Source of the DNA: Gemmatimonadaceae bacterium
GTDB taxonomy: Bacteria > Gemmatimonadota > Gemmatimonadetes > Gemmatimonadales > Gemmatimonadaceae
Assembly: GCA_031407575.1 (NCBI GenBank)
Contig: JANOIJ010000203.1
Coordinates: forward strand, 1-44,863
Direction of reading: 5' to 3'
DNA length: 44,863 nucleotides
How positions within the stretch are numbered: position 1 is the first letter of the stretch; each line of letters starts with the position of its first letter. The position numbers and the translations under genes are program-made. The notes below the pieces were generated by a model. That model had not been told where the DNA came from. It was given only the letters and a program-made list of their open reading frames with translations, and did no database searches. Shown here piece by piece: positions 8-42,907 of this stretch.

Positions 8-128
8 GTGCAGATCCTTCGCTGCGCTCAGGATGACAACACCCGAATGCTTCGCTGCGCTCAGGATGACAAACCCGGCGATCGGCGTGACAGGCGTTGT
101 CATCCTGAGCGCAGCGAAGGATCTGCAC
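8..128. repeat. Family-A palindromic repeat element: units of TTGTCATCCTGAGCGCAGCGAAGGATCTGCAC in inverted orientation (arms 8-40 and 96-128, extra partial unit 51-74)
   Basis: Arm 8-40 (GTGCAGATCCTTCGCTGCGCTCAGGATGACAAC) is the exact reverse complement of arm 96-128. The same 32-nt unit recurs at six other loci in this window. It lies just downstream of the stop of the minus-strand ORF 144..668. Confidence 0.85.
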
Positions 129-143
129 CTCGCACTTCCAGGC

Positions 144-668
144 TCACTCCCCGAACTGCGGCTCATACTGTCCATCGAACTCCTCCTGAAGACGAAGTCG
201 TTCCAACGTGCGCGCACACGTGTTCCAGCGCAGTATCGCATCGTCATTGCCGGCTGCACGGACCTGCGCTGCCTGCTCGAACGACGCCATCGCCGCGCGC
301 AGTGACTGATGCGCCATGGCCTCCGCGTGCATCGCACCCGTGGCCAGCTGTGCGTGACCCAACCGTTCGTCGATGATGCCGGCGTAGTAGTGGCGCTGGT
401 ACGGATCCGTCAGGCGATCGAGCACCGCGCGCGCACGCAGCGCCAACTCGCGCGGCTCCGCGCCGAACTGGTCGGTGAGCGAGAGCAAGAGCATCACCAG
501 CACCTGCTGGTTGGTCGCGTCCACCTCGAGAATGTCGAGGCAGATGCTTTCCGTCGCCCATGACTGGTTGAGCAGCCGATACCGCTCGGCCTTCTGGAGC
601 GCGCGCGGAACGGCCGCCGCCGAGATGGTCTTCAATGCGATGACGCGGTCCATTGGTCCCTCCGTCAA
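144..668 (-). CDS. Hypothetical soluble alpha-helical protein (174 aa), last gene of the sdh operon
   Basis: ORF 144..668. Its start overlaps the sdhB stop by 4 nt (665-668). The predicted protein is non-hydrophobic and helix-rich with no motif I recognise. Confidence 0.5.
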   Translation of the reverse strand: MTEGPMDRVIALKTISAAAVPRALQKAERYRLLNQSWATESICLDILEVDATNQQVLVMLLLSLTDQFGAEPRELALRARAVLDRLTDPYQRHYYAGIIDERLGHAQLATGAMHAEAMAHQSLRAAMASFEQAAQVRAAGNDDAILRWNTCARTLERLRLQEEFDGQYEPQFGE

Positions 669-1489
669 CTCTTCTTCGCGCCGCGCACGAGACGCACGAG
701 CGCCTTGAGCGGATCGTAGTGCGCGTCGACCACGCGCTCCTTGAGCGGAATGATCGCGTTGTCAGTGATGGTGATGTGCTCGGGACACACCGTGGTGCAG
801 CACTTGGTGATGTTGCAGTACCCGATGCCGAAATCATCCTTGAGCGCCGTCGTGCGATCGGCGATGTCGAGCGGATGCATTTCCAGAGCGGCGGCATAAA
901 CGAGATAGCGCGGGCCGATGAACTCCTCGTGCTTGTGGTGGTCGCGCAAGACGTGGCAGACGTCCTGGCAGAGGAAGCACTCGATGCACTTCCGGAATTC
1001 CTGCACGCGGTCCACGTCGCGCTGGTCGATGCGCCACGTGCCATCCGCGTTGTCGGGAGGACGCGGCGTGAACTTCTGGATCTTCGGCTTGACGCGAAAA
1101 TTCCACGAGACGTCGGTGACCAGGTCGCGCACGTGCGGAAAGGCGCGCATGGGCTCGACGGTCACGGGCTCTTCGGCGGGGAGTTCATCGAGCCGCGTCA
1201 TGCACATCAGCTTCGGCTTGCCGTTGATCTCGGCCGAGCAGGACCCACACTTGCCCGCCTTGCAATTCCAGCGCACGGCGAGGTCGTTCGCCTGCTCGGC
1301 CTGGATCTGGTGAATGGCGTCGAGCACCACCATGCCGTCGTTGGTCTCGGTGGTGTAGTCGTGATACTTGCCGGTGCCGTCAGCACCGCGCCAGATCCGG
1401 AAGCTGCGCGCCTGGTGTCCGACGGCGGCATCCTGTGCAGCCTGTGCGGCGGTGTAGGCATCAACGGCGTGCGACTCTGGTGCGGTCAC
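665..1489 (-). CDS. sdhB: Succinate dehydrogenase/fumarate reductase iron-sulfur subunit
   Basis: 274 aa with three Cys clusters (CKAGKCGSCSAEING for 2Fe-2S; CIECFLCQDVC and CNITKCCTTVCP for 4Fe-4S and 3Fe-4S). Its start overlaps the sdhA stop (ATGA at 1486-1489). Confidence 0.9.
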   Translation of the reverse strand: MTAPESHAVDAYTAAQAAQDAAVGHQARSFRIWRGADGTGKYHDYTTETNDGMVVLDAIHQIQAEQANDLAVRWNCKAGKCGSCSAEINGKPKLMCMTRLDELPAEEPVTVEPMRAFPHVRDLVTDVSWNFRVKPKIQKFTPRPPDNADGTWRIDQRDVDRVQEFRKCIECFLCQDVCHVLRDHHKHEEFIGPRYLVYAAALEMHPLDIADRTTALKDDFGIGYCNITKCCTTVCPEHITITDNAIIPLKERVVDAHYDPLKALVRLVRGAKKS

Positions 1490-4460: not shown

Positions 4461-4633
4461 TTGTCGTCCCGAGCCCTTCGACGAAGTTCACCCTGAGCGA
4501 CGCCGAAGGGCTCAGGGTAAACTTCGGCGAGGGACCTGCGGTGTCGCTCCGCGGCAAATGGAACAGCACAAGCAGGTCCCTCGGTCGCGAAGCCTGCCCT
4601 GAGCCAGTCGAAGGGCTCCTGTCGGGACGACAA
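4461..4633. repeat. Structured multi-hairpin element: an outer stem (4461-4482 with 4607-4633) enclosing two inner hairpins, one of which has a CCTGAGC...GCTCAGG core
   Basis: TTGTCGTCCCGAGCCCTTCGAC pairs with GTCGAAGGGCTC(CTGT)CGGGACGACAA. Inner hairpin 1 is GAAGTTcACCCTGAGC...GGCTCAGGGTaAACTTC. Inner hairpin 2 is GAGGGACCTGC...GCAGGTCCCTC, a perfect 11-bp stem. The element lies in the divergent region between the sdhC start (4344) and the kinase start (4680). Confidence 0.7.
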
Positions 4634-4679: not shown

Positions 4680-6914
4680 ATGGCAGACCCGCTGGTGTCC
4701 CTCAACGCCGAACTCGAGGCGCGATTCGCCATAGAGCGAGAGCTCGGCCGCGGCGGCATGGCCACGGTCTATCTCGCCGAAGAGCGCAAGCACGGCCGGC
4801 AAGTCGCCATCAAGGTGCTGCACCGCGAGCTCGCCGCCTCGGTGGGCGCCGAGCGATTCCTGCGCGAGATTGGCATCGTCGCGCGGCTGGCGCATCCACA
4901 CATCGTGCCGCTCATCGACTCCGGTGTCGCCGGCGGACTGCTGTACTACGTGTCGGCGTTCGTGAGCGGCGGCTCGCTGCGCGACCGGCTCGAGCGCGAA
5001 GCCACGATCCCCGTCGCCGATGCGCTCCGCATCGCGCACGAGATCGGGTCGGCACTCGCCTACGCGCATCGGCAGGGCTTCGTGCACCGCGACGTGAAGC
5101 CCGAGAACATCCTCTTTGCCGACGGGCACGCCGTGCTCACCGATTTCGGCGTGGCTCGCGCGTGCACCGTCGTCGCAGCGGACGCGGTGACGGAGGCGGG
5201 CATGGCCGTGGGCACGCCTGCATACATGAGCCCCGAGCAGGCGGCCGGCGACACCGAGATCGGCACGGCGAGCGACATCTACAGCCTCGCGTGCGTGGTG
5301 TACGAGATGCTCGGCGGCAAACCGCCGCTCATGGGTAGCACGGCGCGCGACACGCTCATGAAGCAGGTGACGGAAACGCCGCGCTCCGTGCGCTCCACGC
5401 GCCCCGACGCGTCGCTGGCGATCGATGCCGCGCTCGTGCGCGCGCTCGCCAAGGCGCCAGCCGACCGCTTCGCCGGCATCTCCATTTTCACCGAGGCACT
5501 CCACGCGCCGGATCCAGAGCAGGCGACATCCCGGCACCCGACGCGCAGCATCGCCGTGCTTCCCTTCATCAACTCGAGCCCCGACGTCGAGAACGAGTAC
5601 CTGAGCGACGGCATCACCGACGAGCTGATCGACGCGCTCGCCAAGGTGGACGGCCTGCGCGTCGCGTCGCGCACGTCCGTCTTCGCGCTCAAGGGCAAGC
5701 CGCTGGACGTCCGCGCCATCGGCGCGTTGCTCGGCGTCTCGGACGTGCTGGAGGGCACCGTGCGCAAGTCGGGTGATCGCCTGCGCATCACGGCGCAGCT
5801 CACGTCCACCAAGGACGGCGCGCTGGTATGGTCGCAGCGATACGACCGCACGCTGCACGACGTCTTCACGATCCAGGACGAGATCTCACGCACCATCGTC
5901 AGCACGCTGCGCGCGACGTCGTTCTCGTCGCACCCGAGCGGCGTCGGGCGGCGTTCCACCGAGAGCGTAATTGCGTACGGTCTCTACCTGCGCGGGCGCT
6001 ATGCATGGAACAGCCGCACCCAGGAGGGCGTTTCCGAAGCGATCGAATACTTCAAGCAGGCGATCGCTGAAGATCCGACGTATGCGCTCGCGTACACAGG
6101 GCTGTCCGATGCGTACGCGCTGCACGTGGACTACCGCAGCGTCCCCGTGGCCGAGGGGTTCGAGCGCGCGAAGGCCTATGCACGCAAGGCGCTCGCGCTG
6201 GACGACACGGTCGCCGAAGCGCATGCGTCGCTGGCGTGGTGCCTGTTCGCCTACGATTGGGATTGGGATGGCGCGGCTCGCGAGTTCCAGCGCGCCATCG
6301 AGCTGGACCCGCGTTACGCCACGGCGTACCAGTGGTATGCGTTTCTCCTCGCGTCGGGCGGGCGGATCGATGAGGCACTCGTCACCGGACACACCGCGCA
6401 GGACCTCGATCCGGCCTCCGTGTCCGTGCGGCGCAGCCTCGGCTGGTTGTACGTGTACGCGAGACGATACGAGCAGGCGCGGTACCACCTCGCGCGCGCA
6501 ATGGAGATGAATCCCACCGCCGAGGAGAATTACAGGATTTTGGGTCTCACGCTCGCCCTCGAGGGACAGCTCGACGAGTCGGTGCGTGTGCTGCGCGAAG
6601 CGGTGACCATGCCAGGCTCCGGCAGCTACACGCTGGGGACGCTCGGATTCGCCCTGGCCAAGTCCGGCAAGACGCACGAGGCGGAGTCCATCCTCGCCGA
6701 GCTCGAGCTGCGCGGAGAACGCGAGTACGTGTCGCCTGTCGCACTTGCCACGGTCTGCATTGGACTGGGAATGCACGAACGCGCGCTCGACTGGGCCGAG
6801 CGCGCGTTCGATGACCGGCGAGGATGGCTGGCCTACCTCACCGTGAATCCGATGCTCGATCCGCTACGAGACCAACCACGCTTTCAGGCGCTGGTGCGTC
6901 GGGTGGGACGCTGA
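4680..6914 (+). CDS. Serine/threonine protein kinase with C-terminal TPR-like repeats
   Basis: 744 aa. The N-terminus carries Hanks kinase motifs (GRGGMATVY, VAIK, HRDVKPENIL, DFG, SPE). After the kinase domain there is a linker and then TPR-like helical repeats (e.g. AIELDPRYATAYQWYAF). Confidence 0.9.
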   Translation: MADPLVSLNAELEARFAIERELGRGGMATVYLAEERKHGRQVAIKVLHRELAASVGAERFLREIGIVARLAHPHIVPLIDSGVAGGLLYYVSAFVSGGSLRDRLEREATIPVADALRIAHEIGSALAYAHRQGFVHRDVKPENILFADGHAVLTDFGVARACTVVAADAVTEAGMAVGTPAYMSPEQAAGDTEIGTASDIYSLACVVYEMLGGKPPLMGSTARDTLMKQVTETPRSVRSTRPDASLAIDAALVRALAKAPADRFAGISIFTEALHAPDPEQATSRHPTRSIAVLPFINSSPDVENEYLSDGITDELIDALAKVDGLRVASRTSVFALKGKPLDVRAIGALLGVSDVLEGTVRKSGDRLRITAQLTSTKDGALVWSQRYDRTLHDVFTIQDEISRTIVSTLRATSFSSHPSGVGRRSTESVIAYGLYLRGRYAWNSRTQEGVSEAIEYFKQAIAEDPTYALAYTGLSDAYALHVDYRSVPVAEGFERAKAYARKALALDDTVAEAHASLAWCLFAYDWDWDGAAREFQRAIELDPRYATAYQWYAFLLASGGRIDEALVTGHTAQDLDPASVSVRRSLGWLYVYARRYEQARYHLARAMEMNPTAEENYRILGLTLALEGQLDESVRVLREAVTMPGSGSYTLGTLGFALAKSGKTHEAESILAELELRGEREYVSPVALATVCIGLGMHERALDWAERAFDDRRGWLAYLTVNPMLDPLRDQPRFQALVRRVGR

Positions 6915-10085: not shown

Positions 10086-10213
10086 GTGCAGGTACAGCAG
10101 CAGGTGCAGATCCTTCGAACAAGTGCAGATCCTTCGCTGCGCTCAGGATGACAACCCGAGCAGTTGCAGGTACTACAGCAGTTGTCATCCTGAGCGCAGC
10201 GAAGGATCTGCAC
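10086..10213. repeat. Family-A composite repeat element (1.5 forward units, an inverted unit, plus the internal sub-repeat GCAGGTAC(T)ACAGCAG twice)
   Basis: GTGCAGATCCTTCGCTGCGCTCAGGATGACAAC at 10126-10158 and its reverse complement at 10181-10213. It occupies the entire gap between the peptidase stop (10223) and the ilvE start (10063). Confidence 0.85.
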
Positions 10214-10222: not shown

Positions 10223-11632
10223 TCATGACATCGCGAGCTCGTCCCACAGTGTGGCGATGGCGCGCATGCCTTTCGTGAAGTTCTCGACGCTCATCCACTC
10301 ATCGGGCGCGTGGGCGTTCTCGCCGGGTAGCCCGAAACCTACTAGAAGAACCGGCGCGCCGAGAACCCGCGCGAAATCCCCGACTACCGGAATGGAGCCG
10401 CCCTCCCCGGTGATCACGGGTTCGCGCCCGAACGCCGCCGCCAGCGCGCGGCGCGCCGCGTCGAACAGCGGTCCGGTGATCTCGGCGCGCCATGGCTTGC
10501 CGCCGTGCAGGTGCGTCACCGTGGCCGTCACACCATCGGGCGCCACGCGCGCGACGTGCGCGGCCATGAGCCGCTCGATCTCGGCGGGATCCTGATCGGG
10601 GACGAGGCGGCAGCTCACCTTCGCCATCGCCTTCGCAGGGAGCACCGTCTTGCCGCCCTCGCCCGTGTAGCCGCTCAGCAGGCCGTTCACCTCGCAGGTC
10701 GGGCGTGTCCACAACCGCTCCAGGACGGTGTATCCCGGCTCACCGCCGAGCGCGGGCGAGCCGGCTTCGGCGCGAAAGTGCTCGTCGTTAAAGGGGAGCG
10801 TCCGCATTTGCTCGCGAACCGCCGCCGGCCATTCGTCCACGGCGTCATAGAAGCCGGGAATGGCGACGCGACCCTCCGCGTCGTGCATGGTGGCCAGGAT
10901 GCGCGCGAGGGCCATGGCCGGATTGACGACGGCGCCACCGTAACTGCCCGAGTGCAGGTCCTGCGCGGGGCCCTGCACGTCGACCTGGAAGTACGCGAGC
11001 CCCCGGAGCGACGACAGGATGCTCGGCAGGCCGGGCGCGAACATGGCGGAATCCGAGATCACCACGGCGTCGCAGGCAAGCTCCGCGGCGTGCGACTCGA
11101 CGAACGACGCCAGGTGCTCGCTGCCAACCTCCTCCTCCCCCTCGGCAAGGACCACCACGTTGACGGGGAGCGTTCCACGCACCTCGAGATGCGCCTCGAG
11201 CGCCTTGATGTGAAGGAACAGCTGGCCCTTGTCGTCCACCGATCCGCGAGCATAGAGGCGGCCGTCGCGGATGGTCGGCTCGAACGCGGGCGACGTCCAG
11301 AGCTCGAGCGGCTCAGCGGGCTGCACGTCGTAGTGGCCGTAGACGAGCACCGTGGGCGCGCCCGACGGCGCGCCGCGCCATTCGCCCACCACCACCGGAT
11401 GGCCGGCCGTGGCGTGCACCGTGGCCGTGAGGCCGGCGGCGCGCAGCGACTGGGCAGTCCACTCCGCTGCGCGCACGGTGTCTGCATCGTGCTCGGAACG
11501 CGCGCTAACACTCGGGATGCGCAGAAACTCGAACAACTCGCCGCGAATCCGTTCGTCGTGCGTCGTGAGATAGGCGTCGAGGTCGGCAGGAACGTCGGTC
11601 ATCGTGCGCTGTGGAGGAGGAAAATTGATCAA
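10223..11632 (-). CDS. M20-family metallopeptidase (dipeptidase/ArgE/DapE/CPG2-like)
   Basis: 469 aa with M20 signatures (HYDVQPAEP...; GSVDDKGQ metal-binding Asp; Glu-Glu in EGEEEVGS). Confidence 0.85.
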   Translation of the reverse strand: MINFPPPQRTMTDVPADLDAYLTTHDERIRGELFEFLRIPSVSARSEHDADTVRAAEWTAQSLRAAGLTATVHATAGHPVVVGEWRGAPSGAPTVLVYGHYDVQPAEPLELWTSPAFEPTIRDGRLYARGSVDDKGQLFLHIKALEAHLEVRGTLPVNVVVLAEGEEEVGSEHLASFVESHAAELACDAVVISDSAMFAPGLPSILSSLRGLAYFQVDVQGPAQDLHSGSYGGAVVNPAMALARILATMHDAEGRVAIPGFYDAVDEWPAAVREQMRTLPFNDEHFRAEAGSPALGGEPGYTVLERLWTRPTCEVNGLLSGYTGEGGKTVLPAKAMAKVSCRLVPDQDPAEIERLMAAHVARVAPDGVTATVTHLHGGKPWRAEITGPLFDAARRALAAAFGREPVITGEGGSIPVVGDFARVLGAPVLLVGFGLPGENAHAPDEWMSVENFTKGMRAIATLWDELAMS

Positions 11633-13807: not shown

Positions 13808-15085
13808 TCAGGAGGCCGCCGCGGTGCCGCGCCGTCGCGCTCGCAACACGTACCAGAGGACAGCGAGCGCGGCGATCCACGCGAGCCACACGATGCGTTC
13901 GTCGCCGGACAGCGTGCGCAGCATTCCCCAGCCAACGATCGGCACGGTGAATGGCAGCGCCAGTCCGGTCTCGGTGTCTGCGACATAGCGCTCGACCACC
14001 TTCGTCGAGCGCCGGCCACCGCCTCGCAGCGCGTTGCTGATCATCACCGTCAGCTGCTCGGACGAGAGGGCGCGCCAATTCGGGAAGAACATGAGCGTCC
14101 ATCCGGTGGCCGTGTGGCCCCACCCGTGGTGATCGCTGCCCGCAACGAGCGCGAGATTGAGGCTGTCCGCGAGATGGACGATGCGCGCGCGCTCGCGGCG
14201 CCCCTGCCCCAGTCCCTTGGGCGAACCGTCGATGACCTCGATGGCGCGGACGCCGGCGGTTCCGGGCCCCGTCGCGGCAACGAACTTCGAGAGGTCGCCC
14301 GGAATCGTCTCAATGAGCACGGGCTCGGCGCCCGGAATCCCGCTGACCATCCTGAGCGACGCCTCGTCGATGTCGCGGAGGTTTGCGGTGAGGATGCCCT
14401 GGTACATGCGGTCGGCGTCGAGGACGTTCACGTGCTCGCCGTTCCACACCACCTCGATGCCCGGCAGCAGCGAGGTGCCCTCGCCGGCGCGGGTCGGGTT
14501 GTTCGGCCAGGCGTCGCGCGCGCCCTCGAACGTGCGGTGGTCTGTGATGAACGCGACGTCGAAGCCGGCGTCGCGATGCCAGTTCCGGACGTCAGCCGGG
14601 TGCCAGTCGGAGCGGCCGTCGTGCGAGAAGCGCGTGTGGGCGTGGAAGTCGATGGCCATGATGTCGGCCGCCGTCTCCAGCCTGGCCATGGGACGCGGCA
14701 TGATGGTCGTGGCGGCGTAGACGCCGACGAGCGCGACGAGGCCAACGCCGATTCTGGCCACTTCGCGCAGCGCGCGATGCGTGGCGGTGCGCGCCACCAC
14801 GCGTCCGACGAACCACCACCAGACGACATAGCCAACGACGAGGGTGATCCACAGCGCCACGTGCTGCCGGAGGCTCAGCAGCGTGAGCGTGTCCAGCACG
14901 GCCGACACGGGCGCGAGCAGCACGTATCCCGTGGGTCTGTGGAGCGTGACTTCGCTGACGGTGCCGAAGGTCGCGGCGTCGTGAAATGGCAAGCGCGCGA
15001 ACATCGCCGACACGGCGACGAGCACGGCCGTGACGAGCAGCGCGAGCGGAATTGCGGGCAACCGCAGAATGGATGGGAGCTTCAC
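13808..15085 (-). CDS. Membrane-anchored PHP-domain phosphoesterase
   Basis: N-terminal TM helices are followed by the PHP metal-binding motif (AIDFHAHTRFSHDG) and further His/Asp motifs (DHHGWGH). The start is uncertain: GTG at 15085 or ATG at 15004. The ORF-track extension to 15643 would overlap the divergent gene at 15257 and is rejected. Confidence 0.7.
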   Translation of the reverse strand: MKLPSILRLPAIPLALLVTAVLVAVSAMFARLPFHDAATFGTVSEVTLHRPTGYVLLAPVSAVLDTLTLLSLRQHVALWITLVVGYVVWWWFVGRVVARTATHRALREVARIGVGLVALVGVYAATTIMPRPMARLETAADIMAIDFHAHTRFSHDGRSDWHPADVRNWHRDAGFDVAFITDHRTFEGARDAWPNNPTRAGEGTSLLPGIEVVWNGEHVNVLDADRMYQGILTANLRDIDEASLRMVSGIPGAEPVLIETIPGDLSKFVAATGPGTAGVRAIEVIDGSPKGLGQGRRERARIVHLADSLNLALVAGSDHHGWGHTATGWTLMFFPNWRALSSEQLTVMISNALRGGGRRSTKVVERYVADTETGLALPFTVPIVGWGMLRTLSGDERIVWLAWIAALAVLWYVLRARRRGTAAAS

Positions 15086-15103
15086 GCGGGGGAAGATAGT
15101 AGA

Positions 15104-15165
15104 CGAGAACGGAGAGCGGCGAGCGGAGAACGGAGAACGGCGAAACGGCGAACGGCGAACGGCGA
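15104..15165. repeat. Imperfect tandem heptamer array G(A/C)GA(A/G)CG, about 9 copies, in the divergent promoter region
   Basis: gagaacg gagagcg gcgagcg gagaacg gagaacg gcgaaacg gcgaacg gcgaacg gcgag. It lies between the PHP-gene start and the thioredoxin-domain gene start (15257). Confidence 0.7.
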
Positions 15166-15256
15166 GTATCCTGCGCGACGAACCTGCGTTTCGCCGATCG
15201 CCGCGCTCCGCTCGCCACTCCCGTTCCCAGTTCGCCGCGCGCCGGTACTTTAGAAG

Positions 15257-17278
15257 ATGGCCAATCACCTCGCCGGCGAGACCAGTCCGTACCTGCTCCA
15301 GCACGCGCACAATCCCGTTGATTGGCGGCCGTGGGGCGAGGACGCGCTGGCGCTCTCGCGCACCGAGCGCAAGCCCATCCTCCTCAGCATCGGCTACGCG
15401 GCGTGCCACTGGTGTCACGTCATGGAGCGCGAGTCGTTCGAGAACACCGCGATCGCCGCACTCATGAACGAACACTTCGTCTGCATCAAGGTGGACCGCG
15501 AGGAGCGCCCCGATCTCGACGCGATCTACATGCAGGCCACGCAGGCCATGACGGGACACGGCGGATGGCCGATGACGGTGTTTCTCACGCCCGAGGGCGA
15601 GCCGTTTTACGCTGGTACCTACTTTCCGCCGGACGACCGCCACGGCATGCCCAGCTTTGGCCGAGTGTTGCTCGGCGTGAGCGATGCGTGGCGAAGCCGG
15701 CAGGACACCGTGGTGCGCACCGCGGCGCAGATGCGCGAGCTGTACGCGGCGAGTACCGAGCGCACACGCTCCACCGGCACGCTCGACGAAGCGCTACTGC
15801 TCCGCGCGGTCGATTCGTTGAAGCAGCGGTACGAACCGAAGTTCGGCGGCTTCGACGGCGCGCCGAAGTTTCCGCCGACCATGGCGCTGGACTTCGCGCT
15901 TCGGAGCTGGGCGCGTACGGGCGACGCGGATGCGCTCGCGATGGTGACGCACACCTTCCAGCGTATGGCGCGCGGCGGCATCTACGACCAGGTGGGCGGC
16001 GGGTTCTCGCGCTACAGTGTGGATGCGTACTGGCTCGTACCCCACTTCGAGAAGATGCTGTACGACAACGCGCTCCTTGTGCGGCTCGGCGCGCATCTCT
16101 ACCAGGCCACGCATGACGCTGAGGTGCGACGCGTCACTGAGGAGACGCTCGGCTGGGTGTTCCGGGAGATGACGTCGCCCGAGGGCGGATTCTATTCCTC
16201 GCTCGATGCGGACAGCGAGGGCCATGAGGGCCGCTACTACGTCTGGGACTCCAGCGAGCTCGACGCATTGCTCGGCGAGGACTCGTCGCTGCTGAAGTCG
16301 TACTGGGGCGTGACGCCCGGCGGCAACTTCGAGGGGCGCAACATCCTCTTCGCGCCGGATGATCCGTCGGCGGTTGCGCGCGCGCAGGGCGTGACGGAGC
16401 CCGAGTTGCGGACAGCGATCGAGCGCGCGACGCGCATCCTGTACGACGCGCGTGAGCGCCGCGTGCGTCCTGCGCGAGACGAGAAGATCCTCGCCGGGTG
16501 GAACGGCCTGATGCTGCGCGGCGTGGCCGAGGCGGCGCGTGCGTTCGGCGACGACGATCTTCGTGCGCAGGCGGTGACGAACGGGGAATTTCTCTTTCGC
16601 GCGCTGGTGCGCGACGGACGCGTGCTGCGCTCCTACAAGGATGGCGTCGCGAAGATCGACGGCTTCCTTGAAGACCACGCGGCACTGGGGCTTGGCGCGA
16701 TTGCGCTGTATCAGCTCACCTTCGATCGTGTGTGGATCGATCGCGCGCGCGCGCTCGGCGACCAGATTCTCGGGCGGTTCTGGGACGATGACACGCACGC
16801 GTTCTTCGACACGGCGGCGGATGCGGAACGGCTGGTGACGCGTCCGCGGGACGTCACCGACAACGCGCTGCCGAGTGGAACGTCACTGGCGATCGAGCTG
16901 CTGCTGTCGCTCGGTGACTACTTCGATGTGCGCGAGTACACCGACCGCGCGACGCACATGCTGGAGACAGTAGCCGAGCCGATGGCGCGGTACCCCACGG
17001 CGTTCGGCCACGCGCTCGGCGCGGCGGACATGGCGGTGCGCGGCGCGGTGGAGGTGGCGCTTGTGGGACCGGTGTCGGACGAGCGGTTTCAGGCGTTGCT
17101 GCGCGCGGTGGCGGAACGGTACGTGCCGTCGCTGCTACTGGCCGGCGGTGATGCGCACGGCATCGCGGTGATGAAGGATCGTGCGCGCAACGAGCCGACG
17201 GCGTTCGTCTGCCACGCATACACATGCTCTGCTCCAACGACCGATTCTGCGATCCTCGGCAAACTGTTGTCATCCTGA
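15257..17278 (+). CDS. Thioredoxin-domain protein of the DUF255/YyaL family (thioredoxin fold plus six-hairpin glycosidase-like domain)
   Basis: 673 aa. The N-terminus ([54 protein letters not shown]) is the hallmark of DUF255 and spermatogenesis-associated protein 20-like proteins. Confidence 0.88.
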
Positions 17279-17296
17279 GCGTCGCCGAGGGATCAC
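17267..17296. repeat. Partial family-A unit (TTGTCATCCTGAGCGTCGCCGAGGGATCAC) overlapping the stop codon of the preceding gene
   Basis: The TGA stop of the thioredoxin-domain gene (17276-17278) is the TGA inside the repeat core CATCCTGAGC. Confidence 0.7.
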
Positions 17297-17304: not shown

Positions 17305-17443
17305 TTTGGGGTCAGAGTCGGGGTCAGAGTCGGGGTCAGAGTCGGGGTCAGAGTCGGGTTTGGTCAGAGTCGGGGAGGCGCGTAGCGTTTGGCTGCGCAT
17401 GGGATCGGAATCGCCCGCGACTCTGACCCCCGACTCTGACCCC
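17305..17443. repeat. Tandem 12-mer GGGGTCAGAGTC x4 plus one degenerate copy (17308-17371), with two inverted copies GACTCTGACCCC (17419-17443)
   Basis: Direct reading gives four perfect consecutive 12-mers, about 45 nt of unique sequence, then two reverse-complement copies. This could form a long hairpin. Confidence 0.8.
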
Positions 17444-24300: not shown

Positions 24301-25353
24301 AGCGAGCAGCGCAAGGCAGAGTGCCTCGAGGTCCGCCGGTACACCGCGCACCAACTTGCTCGGTGATACGACGACACCTTTCGACTTCGCGAGAAAAATC
24401 GCCCCGGCGGTGCCCGTGAACGGCGTCTTTCCAGTGAGCGCCTCATAGAGCATGACGCCCATGCTGTACCAGTCGCTCGCCGCGGTGAGGGAATGTCCAG
24501 CGAACTGCTCGGGCGACATGTACGGAGGCGTGCCCAGGTGCGCAGTGGTCCTCGTGGTATCGCCAAGGCCGACGGCGATGCCGAAGTCGAGGATCACGAC
24601 CTGCCCGTCCGGCCGGACGAGCACGTTGGACGGCTTGAGGTCACGATGCAGGACGCCGTGCCCGTGCAGGGCGGAGATGCCATCGGTGAGCTGTGCCATC
24701 GCGTCGCGCAGCCGTCGCTCATCGGCGATGGCATCGAAGGGCGGCCGCGCGGCCGGGTCGTCGCGGATGTGCCTCCCGTTGCGGACCCAGTCCAGGAAAT
24801 CCACGCCGTCCACCAGCTCCATCGTGAAGAACCACTGATCGTCCTCCGCGACCAGCTCGTACAGCTCGACCAGGTTCGGGTGCTCGAGCGCCGCGAGCGA
24901 GCGGAACTCGCGCTTGAACCTGAACAAGGCATCAGGGTCTGCCACCGGAAGCAGCTTGAGCGCCACGCGCGCAGCCGACTGCCGGTCGACGGCTTCGAAC
25001 ACGACGCCCATCCCGCCGGCGCCCAACGTGCGGGTGAGCTCGAAGCGCGGGCTACCGGCGAACGGGTGGACGGCGGACGGCGGTACGAGCTTGCGCACGT
25101 CAGCCGCAAACTCGGCGGCCGCAGCGGCCGCCCCGGCGAGGAAGTCGTCTGATGCCTCGGCGGCCTCGTACGCGCGCACCATGCGCTCGACGTCACGACG
25201 AAACGCTTCGTCTCCGGCGCAATGCTCCGCGAGGTAGCGGCCGCGCGACCCTACCGGTACACCGAGCACCGCCTCCACCATCGGCCTGACGCGTGCCCAT
25301 TGCTCCGCCGCGTCCGCGCGGCCGGGGCGATGCGGCGCGTCAGGGGATGTCAT
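21397..25353 (-). CDS. Large STAND-type Ser/Thr protein kinase (PknK-like): N-terminal ECF-associated motif, Hanks kinase domain, P-loop NTPase (AAA_16-like), and about 700 aa of TPR-like helical repeats
   Basis: Start chosen at the internal ATG (MTSPDAPHRP...), which overlaps the ECF sigma stop by 14 nt. The N-terminal motif is YLAEHCAGDEAFRRDVERMVRAYE. The kinase domain has LGAGGMGVVFEA, HRDLKPSNVL and DFG. The Walker A motif is VYVRGPSGGGKSALIAHF. The C-terminus is long and helical. Confidence 0.85.
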   Translation of the reverse strand: MTSPDAPHRPGRADAAEQWARVRPMVEAVLGVPVGSRGRYLAEHCAGDEAFRRDVERMVRAYEAAEASDDFLAGAAAAAAEFAADVRKLVPPSAVHPFAGSPRFELTRTLGAGGMGVVFEAVDRQSAARVALKLLPVADPDALFRFKREFRSLAALEHPNLVELYELVAEDDQWFFTMELVDGVDFLDWVRNGRHIRDDPAARPPFDAIADERRLRDAMAQLTDGISALHGHGVLHRDLKPSNVLVRPDGQVVILDFGIAVGLGDTTRTTAHLGTPPYMSPEQFAGHSLTAASDWYSMGVMLYEALTGKTPFTGTAGAIFLAKSKGVVVSPSKLVRGVPADLEALCLALLAAEPALRPAADETIARLAAVIEGDDERSPTMEEPTPVFVGRVAQLDALESALDAVRRGASRTVYVRGPSGGGKSALIAHFLGEAGRDEGVLVLEGRCDEQESVPFKAVDAVVDALSSWLRTRSPQQLAHLLPTEIAFLGRLFPVLVRVGAIAAARGGVIVRDPREVRRRAFGVLRALLSSLGETATVVVVIDDLQWGDDDSGELLAHLLTGAAPPRMLFVATYRSEYEHTSPCLQVLATAHAARRDGARPDYLTLSALNAAEAQTLARSLLPPGSNDDVVNRVSAESDGNPFFMHELARYVRTRPGWPHHASEAPFDLERALWARIEALPSVARELLGLVAIAGRPVRNDVWRDASGEAARDPHALALLRHAHLLRSTGSAPLDEVETYHDRIRETIVARLEPAIRRRHHQSLATALAARPDADQETVAVHFAECGEIARASAHFARAAEGAERALAFARAGTLYQRALESPLIEPGQRCVLLTSMGNALANAGRGQLAAQAYERAATIAGADERLDLQRMAATQYAISGHVDEGRALFMHVLRGVGLGSPQSSVALMAQLIARRVQLRLRGLHFVERTERDIPLRDLRRIDALRAVSTALGAVDVVRVAAFQSQALLLALAAGEPRRLALALSWEAVLTATGGPRTARRSSDMLRLASSLANRVESPQARGMVDFADGWVAFLHGRFSHAVTAGAKAEEIFRDQCTGAWWELSTTRTMMAWAMSHCGDNLELGVRLRAWEPEARARGDHFMVTNLLAFPLPYERLVADDIDGAESFLHEALVLWPYRGFHIQHVSVLFSRALMLLYSGAGADACTEVTRRWPAMVRSLQTQNQVTRVMLRDVRARGALQAAAAGVDRARHLARAARDVRAISRERCSWAAGYVERLNAGLAHARGDDAGAIRALETAETSLASAGLALQATIARRQRGLLAGGSAGGALVESADAAMHSRGVVNVDAMSAMLGVAGV

Positions 25354-25936
25354 CGCGCAACTGCTCGAACAGCCACGCGCGCGCCATGGACCAGTCGCGT
25401 GCGACCGTGCGCGGCGACACGCCCAGCGCCTCGGCAATCTCTGCCTCGGTGAGTCCCGCGAAGAAGCGACACTCGACAACGCGGGCGAGACGGTCGTCCA
25501 CGAGGCGGAGGCGATCGAGCGCTTCGTCGAGTGCCAGCAAGGACTCGGCGCGCTCTGCAACCGCGAGCGCCGGCGCGTTCGCCAGCTCCAGGGCGTCGAG
25601 GTCCATGCGTGCCTGATCAGCGCCTCCGCGCCGGGCGGCTTTGTGCTTGCGCGCGTAGTCGATGAGGATGCGGCGCATGGTGCGTGCGGCAATCGCGAAG
25701 AACTGCGATCGATCCACCCATTGCGCATCGGGCTGGTTGGCGAGCCGGAGATAGGCTTCGTGCACGACCGCGGTGGTGGACAGCGTGTGTCCGGAGTGTT
25801 CGGCGCGCAACTGCCGGTGCGCAATGCGCCGCAGCTCGCCGTAGATGAGCGGCATCAGCCGATGCATCGCCTCCGTCTCGCCGGCGCTCAACTCAGAAAG
25901 AGCCTGGACGATCTCCTTCTGCTCCTCGTCTGGCAT
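25340..25936 (-). CDS. ECF-type sigma-70 family RNA polymerase sigma factor of the Ser/Thr-kinase-associated subtype
   Basis: Start at MPDEEQKEIVQ (198 aa). Region 2 is LMPLIYGELRRIAHRQLRAEHSGHTLSTTAVVHEAYLRL and region 4 is LTEAEIAEALGVSPRTVARDWSMARAWL. From memory this resembles the TIGR02999-type sigma factors that are found next to protein kinases. Confidence 0.8.
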   Translation of the reverse strand: MPDEEQKEIVQALSELSAGETEAMHRLMPLIYGELRRIAHRQLRAEHSGHTLSTTAVVHEAYLRLANQPDAQWVDRSQFFAIAARTMRRILIDYARKHKAARRGGADQARMDLDALELANAPALAVAERAESLLALDEALDRLRLVDDRLARVVECRFFAGLTEAEIAEALGVSPRTVARDWSMARAWLFEQLRDDIP

Positions 25937-35843: not shown

Positions 35844-35977
35844 GGCAACTACGGAAGAGCGGGGTTTCACATTTTACGGATTCTACGGAGACTGCCGGAT
35901 ACGGCAGAAGCTCCTTCTGTTCCGTGGTATCCGGCAGTTTCCGAAGCATCCGTAGAATCCGTCAACGCGCTGTTGAC
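35844..35977. repeat. Family-B structured element, copy 2: three nested perfect stems (TACGGATTCTACGGA/TCCGTAGAATCCGTA; CTGCCGGATAC/GTATCCGGCAG; CAGAAG/CTTCTG) plus the palindrome GTCAAC-N5-GTTGAC
   Basis: It is about 85% identical to 3337-3513 in the leader (GGNAACTACGGAAnAGCG) and in the right arm (CCGGCAGTTTCCGnnGCATCCGTnnAATCCGTCAA). It lies between convergent gene ends (35829 and 36042) and is AT-richer than the surrounding sequence. Confidence 0.7.
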
Positions 35978-38043: not shown

Positions 38044-38508
38044 ATGACCCGCTCCGCCTCCACGCTTTTGTGCGCTGCCGTAGTGGCCCTTGGCAGCATC
38101 GGTTGCAGCGCCGCGCAGCCGGCCGTCGCCGCCATGCCCTCGCCGCAGTTTCCGCCGACGACCGGCGCCGGACGCGCGTTCTCGCCGTTCGTGCGCGCGA
38201 ACGGATTCATCTTCCTTGCGGGGCAACTCGGCACGGACAGCACGGGCAGGCTCGCCGCCGGCGGCATCAAGGAGGAGACGCGGCAGACCATGACCAATAT
38301 CAAGAACATCCTCGAGCGGAACGGCTCGTCGATGGACAAGGTGGTGAAGTGCCTCGTGCTGCTCACCGACATCGCGGACCGGCAGGCGATGTCCGAGGTC
38401 TACGTGACGTTCTTCGCGGCGGACAAGCGTCCCGCGCGGACGGCGGCGGGCGTCAGCGCACTCGCGCTCAACGGGAAGGTCGAGATCGAGTGCGTCGCGA
38501 CGGAGTGA
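38044..38508 (+). CDS. RidA/YjgF-family protein with N-terminal signal peptide
   Basis: 154 aa. The signal is STLLCAAVVALGSIGCSA, and the RidA core is FIFLAGQLGTD...ETRQTMTNIKNILE...VVKCLVLLTDIAD...PARTAAGVSALALNGKVEIECVA. Confidence 0.85.
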   Translation: MTRSASTLLCAAVVALGSIGCSAAQPAVAAMPSPQFPPTTGAGRAFSPFVRANGFIFLAGQLGTDSTGRLAAGGIKEETRQTMTNIKNILERNGSSMDKVVKCLVLLTDIADRQAMSEVYVTFFAADKRPARTAAGVSALALNGKVEIECVATE

Positions 38509-38509: not shown

Positions 38510-38610
38510 GTTGTCATCCTGAGCCCAGCGTTGTCATCCTGAACGCAGTGAAGGATCTGCACCTCAGCACGACGGGACGTGCAGATCCTTCGCTGCGCTC
38601 AGGATGACAC
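38510..38610. repeat. Family-A repeat element (two forward units, a 16-nt loop, and an inverted unit)
   Basis: It starts 2 nt after the RidA stop and ends 4 nt before the stop of the convergent FAD-oxidoreductase gene. Confidence 0.85.
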
Positions 38611-38613
38611 CTG

Positions 38614-40047
38614 TTAGCGCTTCGGAGGAATCGCAGCGGTTGGCGGAGGAGTGGGCTCGTACTCCTTGGCGGGAATCCGGAACCGCTTTGCGATCGCCGC
38701 GTCGCCATCGTCGCCGAGCATGCGTTGCGCGAGGTATTCGCCGACCACCGGCGCGAACTTGAATCCTTCCGCGTTGCCACCGCCGGCGAGCCAAACGTTC
38801 GACATCCGCGGATGACGATCGATGATGAAGTCGCGACTCGACGTCGACTCGTAGTGGCACGAATGCGTCTGGAGAATCGGCGCCGACTTCATGATCGGAA
38901 ATCGCTGCTCCAGCAGCCGACGCGAGCCCTCGAGACGGCTGGCGTCTGGCCAGCGGTCGCTGAAGTCCGGATCCAATTGCGAGGGCGGCGTTGGCGGGCG
39001 CGGTGGTGCGGGCGGCGGCGCGACCACTGGCGCACCTGGCACCGGCGCCGCCTCGCGTCGGCTCGCACTGCCGCGCACGCGAAAGCCGCGGTTGTCCACC
39101 GGCAGCGCCGCCCACCCGGTGACCCCGGGAAAATTCCAGCTCGGCAGGTTCGGAAAGGTGAAGCGCTCGTCGTTCGGCGGAGTGCCGTAGTAGATCGCGG
39201 TGCCCATCGGCGTCCGCGTGCGATTGTACAGGACGTCGGGGAACGTCTTGCCGAGCCACGGACCAAGCGCGAACACGAACTGCTCCGCGCGGAGCGTGTG
39301 GCCGGTATCGAGCGCGATCTCCTCGAGCTTGCCGTTCGCGATCTTTGAAATGCGCGCCCGGCCGATGCGGATCGTGCCGCCCGTGCTCTCGAACGCGGCC
39401 GCGACGGCTTGCGTCGCACGCCGAGCGCGGATGACGCCGGCGTCGGTCTCGCTCAGCACGACGGTGATGTCGTCGATGTTGATGACGGGCCAGCGATAGC
39501 GCACTTCGTCGGGCGAGAGCACCTCGTGCGGGACCTTGTACTTGTCCCACCACTCCTTCGTCTTCGTCGTAATCGGCTCGGGCTCGGCGCGCATGATCAG
39601 GTCGCCCGTGGTATGCCACAGTCCCTGTGTGGTGTCCTCGCTCCACTCCGCATCGAACGCGCGCCAGCGCTTCATCCCCTCCCGCGCCCACTGGACCCAC
39701 AGCTCCCCGTCGTCGCGATCGCCGTACGACGAGCGAATGCCGCGCGTCTCGTCGCCCGACGTCGAGCGCGCGTTGCCCGGACCGTACGCGTCCACGAGCG
39801 TCACCTTCGCGCCCATCCGGCGCAGGTTCAGCGCCGTGAAGCTACCCCACACCCCAGCGCCGATGACGACGATCTCCGCTGACGAACTCCCGATGAACGG
39901 CAACCGGCGCTTGGGACGAAGCCCGGGCACCTGCTGCGCGTCGGCGACGCCGCCGCCGGCCAGCAGGAGGCCGGCGCCCGCTGCGACCTTCAGGAAATCG
40001 CGCCGCGCGACGGATGCGTTCGGGTCCTTGCCGGCATCATCTACCAT
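38614..40047 (-). CDS. FAD-dependent oxidoreductase (DAO/amino-acid-oxidase-like), Tat-exported, with a proline-rich insertion
   Basis: Start at the internal ATG (MVDDAGKDP...). The twin-arginine signal is RRDFLKVAAGAGLLLAGGG and the FAD-binding fold is IVVIGAGVWGSFTAL. The insert is PVPGAPVVAPPPAPPRPPTPP. Confidence 0.75.
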   Translation of the reverse strand: MVDDAGKDPNASVARRDFLKVAAGAGLLLAGGGVADAQQVPGLRPKRRLPFIGSSSAEIVVIGAGVWGSFTALNLRRMGAKVTLVDAYGPGNARSTSGDETRGIRSSYGDRDDGELWVQWAREGMKRWRAFDAEWSEDTTQGLWHTTGDLIMRAEPEPITTKTKEWWDKYKVPHEVLSPDEVRYRWPVINIDDITVVLSETDAGVIRARRATQAVAAAFESTGGTIRIGRARISKIANGKLEEIALDTGHTLRAEQFVFALGPWLGKTFPDVLYNRTRTPMGTAIYYGTPPNDERFTFPNLPSWNFPGVTGWAALPVDNRGFRVRGSASRREAAPVPGAPVVAPPPAPPRPPTPPSQLDPDFSDRWPDASRLEGSRRLLEQRFPIMKSAPILQTHSCHYESTSSRDFIIDRHPRMSNVWLAGGGNAEGFKFAPVVGEYLAQRMLGDDGDAAIAKRFRIPAKEYEPTPPPTAAIPPKR

Positions 40048-40127: not shown

Positions 40128-40208
40128 TTGTCATCCTGAGCGAAGCGAAGGATCTGCACTTCCGCCGTAGCCAGGTGCAGATCCTTCGCTTGCCTCAGGA
40201 TGACAACC
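40128..40208. repeat. Family-A inverted repeat pair in the divergent promoter region
   Basis: TTGTCATCCTGAGCGAAGCGAAGGATCTGCAC -15 nt- GTGCAGATCCTTCGCTTGCCTCAGGATGACAA. It lies between divergent starts at 40047 (minus strand) and 40263 (plus strand). Confidence 0.85.
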
Positions 40209-40974: not shown

Positions 40975-41016
40975 TTGACTCATCGGCATGAGTTTGGTAT
41001 ACTCATGGTATGAGTA
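40975..41016 (+). promoter_or_regulatory. Near-consensus sigma-70 promoter (TTGACT, 17 nt spacer, TATACT) with two ACTCAT-N3/4-ATGAGT operator palindromes, driving a leaderless vapBC transcript
   Basis: TTGACT is at 40975-40980 and TATACT at 40998-41003. The ATG is at 41010, only 6 nt after the -10. The palindromes are at 40978-40993 and 41000-41016. Confidence 0.65.
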
Positions 41017-41264
41017 AGCGTCTTCAGGTCGCCATCGAGGACTCCGAGTACCGCGAGATGCAGCGCGCGGCGCGCCGGGCCGGCCTTACCATGTCGCAGT
41101 GGGTGCGCGAAGCGCTGAGTGCCATGCGCCGTCGCCAGCCCGCAAGCGACACAGGCAAGAAGCTGAGCGCGGTTCGCGAAGCGGCCCGTCACAGCTATCC
41201 CGCGGGGGACATCGACCAGATGCTTACTGAGATCGAATCAGGCTACCTGGGCGACCCGCCGTGA
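41010..41264 (+). CDS. vapB: Ribbon-helix-helix (CopG/VapB-like) antitoxin
   Basis: 84 aa. The N-terminus ([34 protein letters not shown]) is RHH-like. It overlaps the downstream PIN gene by 4 nt. Confidence 0.75.
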
Positions 41265-41653
41265 TCTTCGTCGATTCCAACATTCCCATGTACCTGATCG
41301 GCGCCTATCACCCTCATAAGGCGGATGCGCAGCGACTGCTGGAGACGGCGATCGCTGCCGGCGAGCGGCTCGTGACCAATGCCGAAGTGTTCCAGGAGAT
41401 CCTTCATCGATATGTCGCTATCGATCGCCGAGACGCAATCCAGCCTGCGTTTGATGCTCTGTCAGCGGTCGTGGATGAGGTGTTCGCCATCGGCATGGCC
41501 GACGTGGAACGGGCGAAGACGATCGTGCATGGAAAGCGGATCTCAGCGCGCGATGCCATTCATCTGGCTACCATGCAACGGAGTGGCGTCGATCGGATCA
41601 TGAGCTTCGACGCGGGGTTCGAGAACATTCCGGGGATTGTTCGACTACACTGA
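41261..41653 (+). CDS. vapC: PIN-domain ribonuclease toxin
   Basis: 130 aa with an N-terminal acidic residue (MIFVDSNIP, Asp5) and the further conserved acidic positions of the PIN fold (E..., D98, D118). Confidence 0.8.
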
Positions 41654-41764
41654 CCCCTCCGCAGCCGTGCGGCAGCAGCGTTCCTTCCGCTCGCCACGAC
41701 TTTCCTGTAGTTCCTATCCGCGAACTGCCACGACCCCGAATTCAAATTTCTTCCCGCTTCCCGC

Positions 41765-42817
41765 ATGACGACCCGATTCATCGTTGCCGCGGCGCTCACG
41801 CTGACGTGTGCCGCGCACGCGAACGCGCAGGGCACCGTGCAGCCGACCAACGACGCGCCGAATCCGTACCGATCCGTGGAAGGCTGGGCGAAGCTGCCGG
41901 ACGGACGCACATGGGGCTCCACGAGCGCCGTGGACATCGACCGCGATGGAACGAGTATCTGGATCGCCGAGCGATGCGGCACCAACAGCTGCCTCGGTTC
42001 GTCGCTTCCGTCCGTTCTCAAGTTCGACAGGACGGGCAAGCTGCTCCGGTCCTTCGGCGCAGGGTTGGTGATGTCGCCGCATGGCATTCACGTCGATCGC
42101 GCGGGAAACGTCTGGGTGACGGACTGCTCGTGCACTCGCGCGGCCGCCGGCACGCCGGTGGACAGCAGCGCGGGTCCGCGGGGACACCAGGTCTTCAAGT
42201 TCAGTCCCACCGGCAAGCTGCTGTTGACGCTCGGCAAGGCGGGGGGCGGCCGCGACACGGCGCATTTCTGGCAGCCGAACGACGTCCTCGTCGCACCGAA
42301 CGGCACGATCTTCGTGGCCGAGGGGCATTCGTCGAGCGCGGGGGCCACGGCGCGCATCCTCAAGTTCTCGAAGACTGGCACGCTGTTGAAGACGTGGGGC
42401 ACGCTCGGCAGTGGTCCCACGCAGATGAACCAGCCACACGCGCTGGCCATGGACTCGAAGGGACGTCTGTTCGTGGGCGATCGCGGCAATGACCGCATCC
42501 AGATCTACGACCAGGACGGCGCGCTGCTGGATACGTGGTACCAGTTCAGCCGGCCGAGCGGAATCTTCATCGACGCGAAGGACCGGATGTACGTCGCGGA
42601 TTCGGAATCCGGATCTGTCGCTCCGACGCGCAAGGACTGGAAGCGCGGCATTCGCATCGGCAGCGCGAGAACGGGCGCGGTCTCGGCGTTCATTCCCGAC
42701 CCGAACGAGAATCCGCCGAGCACGAGTGCGGCCGAGGGCGTGGCGGTGGATGCGAAGGGGAACATTTACGGCGCCGAGGTTGGCCCGAAGCGGCTGATGC
42801 GGTATGTGAAGCCGTAG
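41765..42817 (+). CDS. NHL-repeat (six-bladed beta-propeller) exported protein
   Basis: The signal peptide is FIVAAALTLTCAAHANAQG. The blades are of the repeated NHL type (...P.G...D..GN.WV.D...; ...LF.VGDRGNDRIQIYD). Confidence 0.75.
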   Translation: MTTRFIVAAALTLTCAAHANAQGTVQPTNDAPNPYRSVEGWAKLPDGRTWGSTSAVDIDRDGTSIWIAERCGTNSCLGSSLPSVLKFDRTGKLLRSFGAGLVMSPHGIHVDRAGNVWVTDCSCTRAAAGTPVDSSAGPRGHQVFKFSPTGKLLLTLGKAGGGRDTAHFWQPNDVLVAPNGTIFVAEGHSSSAGATARILKFSKTGTLLKTWGTLGSGPTQMNQPHALAMDSKGRLFVGDRGNDRIQIYDQDGALLDTWYQFSRPSGIFIDAKDRMYVADSESGSVAPTRKDWKRGIRIGSARTGAVSAFIPDPNENPPSTSAAEGVAVDAKGNIYGAEVGPKRLMRYVKP

Positions 42818-42835
42818 ACGGGGGCGCTGACAACC

Positions 42836-42907
42836 CTGTCATCCTGAGCGTAGCGAAGGATCTGCACCTGCCGACGTGCAGATCCTTCGCTGCGCTCAGG
42901 ATGACAA
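42836..42907. repeat. Family-A perfect inverted repeat (32-nt arms, 8-nt loop)
   Basis: CTGTCATCCTGAGCGTAGCGAAGGATCTGCAC ctgccgac GTGCAGATCCTTCGCTGCGCTCAGGATGACAA. It fills the gap between convergent stops (42817 and 42908). Confidence 0.9.

Follow-up and report, generated by a model that had tools for sequence, protein, structure and literature searches.

Short palindromic repeats fill gaps between genes in a 44,863-nucleotide contig (JANOIJ010000203.1, assembly GCA_031407575.1) of a Gemmatimonadaceae bacterium, and the question they raise is what kind of element they are and which enzyme, if any, acts on them. A preliminary description of this stretch, hereafter called the window, left three possibilities: a repetitive extragenic palindrome (REP)-like element, a transposable element of the miniature inverted-repeat type (MITE), or a repeat with a dedicated REP-associated tyrosine transposase (RAYT). 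It appears likely that the repeats are Ssn-related motifs (SRM), i.e. members of the CGTC/TGTC-tagged REP-like class, and that their partner is an Ssn-family GIY-YIG nuclease of single-stranded DNA (ssDNA), encoded elsewhere in the genome, that nicks the units. The support obtained here is that the hairpin covaries, that its tag and 3' C are conserved, that ssn homologues are tightly linked to the motif in other genomes, and that the proteins these encode are homologous to a presumed SsnA orthologue of Neisseria. The main value of the analysis is that it corrects the RAYT, MITE or terminator reading and shows that the published search pattern for SRMs misses the form of the motif present in this organism, which is marked by a tandem G·A mismatch.

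The repeat family is real and non-random. A 32-nt sequence, TTGTCATCCTGAGCGCAGCGAAGGATCTGCAC, has 10 matches in the window at three or fewer mismatches and none in 100 dinucleotide shuffles. A less strict, structure-based pattern picks up 11 units there, again versus none in 100 shuffles. Further variant and half units came from reading the loci and from a half-motif scan of the window; with these counted, the family is present at all seven loci listed in the preliminary description. The inner dyad that this description had noticed in each arm (ATCCT...AGGAT) is in fact the conserved, covarying unit, together with an unpaired GTC tag and a following C, while the 32-mer is this genome's extended version of it. 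The unit can be written 5'-(T)GTC-[ATCCT]-GA-[GC-GNA-GC]-GA-[AGGAT]-C(T), in which a 5-bp basal stem (ATCCT/AGGAT) is followed by a tandem G·A/A·G mismatch, a 2-bp GC stem and a GNA triloop, with an unpaired C(T) at the end. All units in the window have TGTC and then AT; past the palindrome, all have a C. Only the tag strand contains the two G·A mismatches and the GNA loop.

In a non-ascertained set of instances, which were found through the loop sequence only and have a non-canonical stem, the frequencies before the stem were T.80, G.93, T.93 and C.95, and those after it were C.95-.98 and T.80. Compensatory stem variants include ATTCT/AGAAT, GTCCT/AGGAC, ATTCC/GGAAT, ATGCT/AGCAT and ATGTT/AACAT; the apical part, most often GC-GNA-GC, varies in length and always keeps the GA...GA frame. 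Covariation was measured on 110 distinct units from loci picked by a neighbouring GIY-YIG gene, not by the core sequence. GTC and the 3' C were invariant in this alignment, and the preceding T was at least 90% conserved. All seven base pairs showed compensatory changes, and 97.9% of the cells were standard pairs. Double-sided changes were seen in 106 cells, compared with 21.6 +/- 9.6 in shuffles (0 of 500 reached the observed value) and with 3-12 in slid-partner controls, and G-U pairs were rare (~11 of 770 cells). The basal stem had been used as a filter (at least four of five pairs), whereas the apical helix was unfiltered; very few chance hits are expected in the alignment because the loose matches were bimodal, with 103 at five of five pairs and 20 at two or fewer. 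A compensatory change also occurs within the window itself (38533-38557).

Tandem sheared G·A pairs are stable in DNA, and d(GCGNAGC), a sequence studied by Hirao and co-workers in the 1990s, is said to form an unusually stable DNA mini-hairpin in which a sheared G·A pair closes a one-base loop. Exactly this heptamer, GCGNAGC, forms the apex of the canonical unit. The mini-hairpin is, however, a structural motif and not a genetic element, other apical stem lengths occur among the units, and its relevance here is presumptive.

Evidence for a partner protein came from a forward and a reciprocal test. In the forward test, all open reading frames (ORFs) of 183 motif-selected loci were clustered, and the only family that recurred beside the motif in unrelated taxa was a protein of 92-100 residues. 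This ~95-residue protein was encoded in four of the 183 loci, each time with units within ~20-50 nt, and it consists of a single GIY-YIG domain (PF01541, E 5e-12 to 4e-18). In the reciprocal test, 80 metagenome loci were picked solely for encoding a relative of this protein; the motif was found in 70 of them, and in 67 it lay no more than 150 nt from the gene. Motif density was 5.7 per kb within 150 nt of the GIY-YIG gene, 1.13 at 151-500 nt and 0.09 beyond 500 nt, a 60-fold local enrichment. Units flanked the gene on both sides in 34 of 81 cases (42%), the commonest layout being unit(+), gene, unit(-) with the tags pointing outward.

A tblastn search of PLSDB with the GIY-YIG protein reached chromosomes of N. 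gonorrhoeae. The partner protein is 47% identical over 88 residues (E 3e-26) to a 94-residue gonococcal GIY-YIG protein, the ORF of which sits among 16 copies of the repeat known as NTS in 1.6 kb. This gonococcal protein is presumably the SsnA orthologue. It is because of this identity and the tight linkage to a GIY-YIG gene that we regard the repeats as SRMs. The closest solved structures, those of the UPF0213 GIY-YIG proteins, are more distant (E 6e-8). A further ssn homologue, 66% identical, comes from Planktothrix and is flanked by units of the tandem-G·A type on both sides. As a separate observation, the neighbours of this homologue, on Planktothrix agardhii plasmid NZ_LR882964.1 (17350-20622), are a restriction-modification gene of MmeI type on one side and the DISARM helicase gene drmA on the other, which is a defence-island context. 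The gonococcal chromosomes, 2.17 Mb in size, are filed in PLSDB as plasmids (e.g. NZ_CP119140.1).

SsnA of Neisseria is a 94-residue single-domain GIY-YIG protein (cd10448) that binds and cuts NTS, CGTCATTCCCGCGMAVGCGGGAATCYRG, as ssDNA only, on the tag strand only and a few nucleotides upstream (PMC11893778, Chenal et al., Nat Commun 2025). Binding restricted to ssDNA and cleavage upstream of the motif were demonstrated for the Neisseria and Wolbachia enzymes; the RNA form of the motif was not bound, and the three nucleotides before the palindrome were most critical for cleavage, the C after it for binding (PMC11893778). The same study reported SRMs near 71% of Ssn homologues and on both sides of 42%, noted that the NTS-ssnA-NTS layout resembles an insertion sequence, drew the parallel with REP/RAYT, and showed that in N. 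meningitidis the Ssn system lowers transformation by NTS-bearing DNA. The units described here share with SRMs, and with NTS (a subset of dRS3), a directional hairpin in a semi-palindrome of 20-50 nt, an unpaired HGTC tag, an AT stem start and a C after the palindrome. They also occur in many copies, mostly intergenic, and bracket a ~94-residue single-domain GIY-YIG gene, with the same proportion flanked on both sides (42%) in both data sets. On the other hand, the tandem G·A/A·G mismatch is invariant here and the loop is a GNA triloop, whereas the NTS stem is fully paired (ATTCCCGC/GCGGGAAT). The hosts differ as well: they are mainly environmental phyla here (Acidobacteriota, Chloroflexota, Gemmatimonadota, Patescibacteria and others), while PMC11893778 emphasises symbionts.

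The following scheme would account for the repeats. During replication, repair or DNA uptake, the tag-bearing strand would become single-stranded, and a ~95-residue single-domain GIY-YIG endonuclease of the Ssn family would bind the folded unit and nick the ssDNA a few nucleotides 5' of the tag. The Ssn gene would lie elsewhere in the genome, typically bracketed by two inverted units. Units may thereby have been multiplied across the genome, persisting where insertions are tolerated, i.e. at gene ends and in intergenic gaps, and the inverted pairs would resemble a unit-ssn-unit cassette minus its gene. Presumably, this genome encodes a cognate Ssn that cuts these units and drives their spread.

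Several results weigh against this assignment. The motif was not found within 150 nt of the gene by the search pattern in 13 of the 80 protein-selected loci. The window, which differs in this respect from SRM loci with an ssn gene, contains no GIY-YIG gene or remnant by hmmsearch or by tblastn at E up to 10. A single unit reaches only -2.7 kcal/mol (z 0.37) in a nearest-neighbour DNA model; with so weak an energy, its stability would depend on non-canonical G·A and GNA contributions, and the case for its structure is made by covariation, the thermodynamic model giving no support. The presence or absence polymorphism that the preliminary description had proposed to look for was not seen in this organism, where a second assembly, GCA_043737975.1, represented by two short contigs both inside the window, and a Logan contig are 99.9-100% identical to the window without gaps. 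Finally, the published SRM pattern, HGTCWYN(0-2)YYVSBRHN(0-5)WNVSBRGN(0-2)RNCYNB, which was built from 29 genomes (PMC11893778), matches none of the units in the window. Its sole match there, at 16141-16174, is a chance one inside a gene; the pattern does match a test sequence written to the NTS consensus. The units are missed because their tandem G·A mismatch places T-G-A where the pattern demands YYVS, and we treat the pattern as an operational search tool and not as a biological definition.

The tandem-G·A variant of the window appears not to be covered by published descriptions. The CGTC-tagged REPs catalogued in 2013 often carry TGTC as the tag, have stems beginning with A-T and a short (3-nt) tail, and form dimers (PMC3733652, Di Nocera, De Gregorio & Rocco, BMC Genomics 2013). 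That class, which includes Neisseria dRS3 and the Rickettsia RPEs, was said to "apparently lack a dedicated transposase" (PMC3733652). The present units resemble it in the CGTC/TGTC tag, in A-T at stem positions 1-2, in the short tail, in occurring mostly as inverted dimers, in being mainly intergenic with some running into genes, and in having no associated transposase. However, the stems of that class are 8-9 bp long and uninterrupted with loops of 4-5 nt, whereas here 5 bp, a 2-nt G·A/A·G mismatch and 2 bp lead to a 3-nt loop. Repeats with more than one stem mismatch were discarded by the 2013 method, and five phyla were reported there, as against at least 15 for the exact core here. We suggest tentatively, as a possibility about which we remain somewhat doubtful, that the tandem-G·A form (GTC-WYBYY-GA-[hairpin]-GA-RRVRW-C) is a distinct sub-family of Ssn targets across bacteria, missed by both the 2013 REP catalogue and the 2025 SRM pattern. 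If so, the Ssn/SRM system would be far more widespread in environmental bacteria than reported, and either horizontal movement of the unit-ssn-unit cassette or an unusually strong constraint of the nuclease on its site would follow. Since the published pattern misses this variant, censuses of Ssn/SRM undercount soil and candidate phyla. Ssn enzymes paired with so uniform a site would also be candidates for a new specificity among ssDNA tools.

The distribution of the exact 25-nt core, GTCATCCTGAGCGNAGCGAAGGATC, is wide. More than 119 genome contigs, representing at least 15 phyla, contain it, as do 64 IMG/VR viral contigs of 43-70% G+C, and the flanks are unrelated throughout. Its hosts include Acidobacteriota, Chloroflexota, Gemmatimonadota, Bacteroidota, Bacillota, Planctomycetota and Verrucomicrobiota, as well as Omnitrophota, Patescibacteria, Nitrospirota, Synergistota, Bdellovibrionota and several proteobacterial classes. 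REP-like repeats do not usually keep a 25-mer nearly identical from phylum to phylum, and either horizontal spread or strong constraint by an enzyme is needed to explain it. Among related viral contigs (87-94% identical), one intergenic region holds two, four and three units, respectively (L004 8250-8520, L011 2900-3300 and L025 1000-1250). In unrelated genomes, moreover, there are head-to-tail arrays of 5' half-units only, each made of TGTCATCCTGAG and ~10 variable nucleotides (L086 268-400, L114 1-40, L127 3235-3740, L268 1800-1900, the last designating the Planktothrix plasmid); these arrays suggest that part-units are also multiplied in a second way, such as by slippage or by repair where a cut was made. 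The differing unit counts and the half-unit arrays together indicate that unit number is labile; in the viral contigs it changes on short evolutionary scales. No clean empty site was found in the contigs compared, and the mode of spread is one that we infer. Among 145 singleton units from the motif-selected loci (L001-L183), the locally C-rich strand was preferred over the G-rich strand, 76 versus 38, where the absolute GC skew of the locus was 0.02 or more. Exposure of the tag strand on the lagging-strand template may be avoided in this way, although skew measured over 8 kb is a poor stand-in for replication direction. A literature search for the repeat sequence or its pseudo-peptide returned nothing relevant.

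The units and part-units of the window are as follows; mismatches are counted against the 32-mer.

8-39, minus strand: complete unit, no mismatch; left arm of a pair with 97-128, tags facing inward.
44-73, minus strand: degenerate third unit of the first locus, TTTGTCATCCTGAGCGCAGCGAAGCATTCG, with the 3' half of the stem mutated; 74%.
97-128, plus strand: complete unit, no mismatch; its end lies 15 nt from the stop of gene 144-668(-).
4461-4633: composite degenerate relative, with outer inverted arms TTGTCGTCCCGAGCCCTTCG around three hairpin modules of CCTGAGC type.
10104-10117, minus strand: 3'-half fragment CGAAGGATCTGCAC, adjoining a duplicated spacer sequence (10086-10103).
10123-10154, minus strand: complete unit, no mismatch.
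10182-10213, plus strand: complete unit, no mismatch; forms a 33-bp perfect hairpin with 10123-10154 and lies 9 nt from the stop of M20 peptidase gene 10223-11602(-).
17267-17296, plus strand: lone complete variant unit, GTCATCCTGAGCGTCGCCGAGGGATC.
21341-21362, plus strand: 5' part-unit, GACATCCTGAGCGCAGCG.
21362-21394: perfect hairpin made of two 5' halves, TGTCATCCTGAGCC-CTTC-GGCTCAGGATGACA, 2 nt from the stop of kinase gene 21397-25824(-).
38510-38530, plus strand: 5' half-unit, starting 1-2 nt past the stop of RidA-family gene 38044-38508.
38531-38562, plus strand: complete unit; its apical stem carries a compensatory change, GAAC-GCA-GTGA.
38579-38610, minus strand: complete unit, one mismatch; 3 nt from the stop of DAO gene 38614-40047(-); paired with 38531-38562, tags outward, 16-nt spacer.
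40128-40159, plus strand: complete unit, one mismatch; between the divergent gene starts 40047(-) and 40305(+).
40175-40206, minus strand: unit with three mismatches in the apical part; paired with 40128-40159.
42836-42867, plus strand: complete unit, two mismatches; 18 nt past the stop of NHL-repeat gene 41765-42817.
42876-42907, minus strand: complete unit, no mismatch; abuts the stop of a PQQ dehydrogenase gene (42908).

The 10 copies of the 32-mer form five inverted pairs, in both relative orientations and with spacers of 57, 27, 16, 15 and 8 nt. The inverted pairing that had been described earlier was therefore borne out, but the perfect stems of 30-32 bp ascribed to the pairs were found in only two of the five (complementarity of 100% over 33 nt and 97% over 36 nt). 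Several stem mismatches are present in each of the remaining three, the pair 38531/38579 being ~91% complementary over 34 nt. Folded as ssDNA, the inverted pairs reach -34 to -49 kcal/mol (z -8 to -11), for example -38.8 kcal/mol for 42836-42907. The element at 4461-4633, earlier thought possibly related, is indeed a relative, albeit a degenerate one whose inner modules have no GTC tag: its arms share 17 of 20 bases with the 5' half-unit at 21361-21380. The element folds as ssDNA at -57.7 kcal/mol (z -7.2) and lies upstream of the Ser/Thr kinase gene 4680-6914. No Rfam family matched the repeats at its gathering threshold; below it there was only a generic long-hairpin likeness to eukaryotic miRNA precursors (25-36 bits versus thresholds of 70-100). 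Hammerhead, K-turn, boxB and CsrA-site candidates were dropped on inspection, as core positions mismatched and a dependence on strand or RNA was unsupported.

Gene positions were taken from the calls on the second assembly GCA_043737975.1, which is 99.9% identical, and from Pfam. The window has ~67% G+C throughout, and its genes are of the usual chromosomal kind (sdhAB-like, G6PD, acyl-CoA dehydrogenase, two Ser/Thr kinases, LpxR and others). No tRNA or tmRNA was found in it, and an origin of the repeats from either was dropped. Three loci, probably four, lie between convergent genes, two between tandem genes and one between divergent starts, and one is cut by the window edge; the fourth convergent case (21341-21396) is only probable, its left-hand ORF being without Pfam support. 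The distances between units and stop codons are 0, 1, 3, 9, 15 and 18 nt, and one unit holds the stop codon itself: in 17267-17296, CCTGAGC provides the TGA stop (17276-17278) and the last codons of gene 15257-17278. The statement that the repeats fit within 0-5 nt of stops between convergent or tandem genes is consequently true for some loci only, because the distances span 0-18 nt, and the pair at 40128-40206 lies between divergent starts.

As had been pointed out, a unit can be read as the pseudo-peptide VILSAAKDLH, and GTC ATC CTG AGC GCA GCG AAG GAT CTG CAC does translate so. The possibility that the matches belong to conserved coding sequence is excluded by their position and by their distribution on both strands. 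On annotation, for which spurious ORFs seeded by the repeats had been expected, the effect seen was a false extension of one gene. In the longest ORF of the DAO-family oxidoreductase, the initial ATG (40132-40134) is provided by the CAT of GTCATCC within a repeat unit, whereas the database call starts at 40047; the repeat thus adds a false N-terminal extension of 29 residues, up to 40134. Because units supply both stop codons and false start codons, they distort gene calls.

Two explanations of the fit to gene ends had been offered earlier: targeted insertion, or selection for use as terminators or mRNA-stability hairpins. Nothing shows targeting, and tolerance of insertions in intergenic DNA accounts for the placement equally well. 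An RNA-level function would mean that transcribed inverted pairs at gene 3' ends terminate transcription or protect mRNA, selection then explaining the fit to stop codons. The three, probably four, of seven loci between convergent genes, often 0-3 nt from a stop, and the stable folding of the pairs are what one would expect from it, and for single units elsewhere the gene upstream lies more often on the unit's own strand (60 versus 36); many REPs have also been argued to be transcribed (PMC3733652). However, no T-tract occurs at any repeat locus, terminator-like sites in the window, none of which is a repeat locus, are at or below chance, and one locus sits in a divergent promoter region. Across genomes the orientation bias is only weak, with sense and antisense nearly equal between tandem genes (98 versus 80), and divergent gaps are also used (44). 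The invariant unpaired GTC tag and 3' C would be needless for a terminator, and the rarity of G-U pairs and the failure of Ssn to bind the RNA form likewise speak against it. We consider an RNA-level function unlikely as the explanation of the repeats; as a secondary effect of the long pair hairpins it is possible, and compatible with nicking by Ssn.

The REP-like character suggested earlier is retained, in view of the inverted pairs and the mostly intergenic placement, but neither of the mobile elements proposed with it is. Classical REP/REPIN elements, which would be moved by an IS200-like Y1 transposase of the RAYT type whose gene lies elsewhere in the genome (Nunvar 2010; Bertels & Rainey 2011; Ton-Hoang 2012), likewise form inverted doublets; their hairpins are short, an unpaired tetranucleotide at the 5' end is conserved, and there too the nuclease, from a single-copy gene flanked by the repeats, acts on ssDNA. 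The tag in those elements is GTAG, whereas it is (T/C)GTC here, and the enzyme is an HUH/Y1 transposase instead of a GIY-YIG protein; their sequences are typically species- or genus-specific, whereas the core described here hardly changes from phylum to phylum. The 2013 survey found no RAYT with CGTC repeats around it (PMC3733652), no transposase was detected by Pfam among the ~37 genes of the window, and the GIY-YIG family, linked to the motif in 67 of 80 loci, is the only one recurring beside it in the motif-selected loci. A RAYT is thus very improbable. It is scarcely credible, too, that the repeats are MITEs, i.e. deletion derivatives of a DDE-type insertion sequence with the 32-mers as terminal inverted repeats. 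Three of the pairs do resemble elements of 72-80 nt bounded by inverted repeats with the ends TTGTCA...TGACAA, but the spacers vary, both relative orientations occur, single units and half-units exist, and no flanking direct duplication is evident. Moreover, conservation and covariation are found within each arm and not between arms, and the gene between such arms elsewhere encodes a 95-residue nuclease domain and not a transposase.

Apart from this family, some other features of the window were noted. A perfect tandem array of GGGGTCAGAGTC (4.2 copies) at 17308-17358 is followed ~60 nt downstream by two inverted copies (17414-17443), all within the gap that separates the end of a DUF255/thioredoxin-like gene (17278) from a MarR-GNAT fusion gene starting at 17485; the array might be operator-like or represent a second repeat family. 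At 15106-15165, where the long ORFs 13808-15643(-) and 15257-17278(+) overlap, the heptamer GAACGGC is repeated eight times (86% matches). A 55-nt imperfect inverted repeat, 75% complementary with a 10-nt gap, occupies 35855-35974, a relatively AT-rich segment between the convergent gene ends 35829 and 36042. Finally, a VapBC-like pair is found at 40975-41653, in which an 84-residue ORF (41010-41264) overlaps a PIN-domain gene (41261-41653); the window's best sigma-70-like site, TTGACT-17-TATACT with an upstream TG (40975-41003), lies ahead of the pair.

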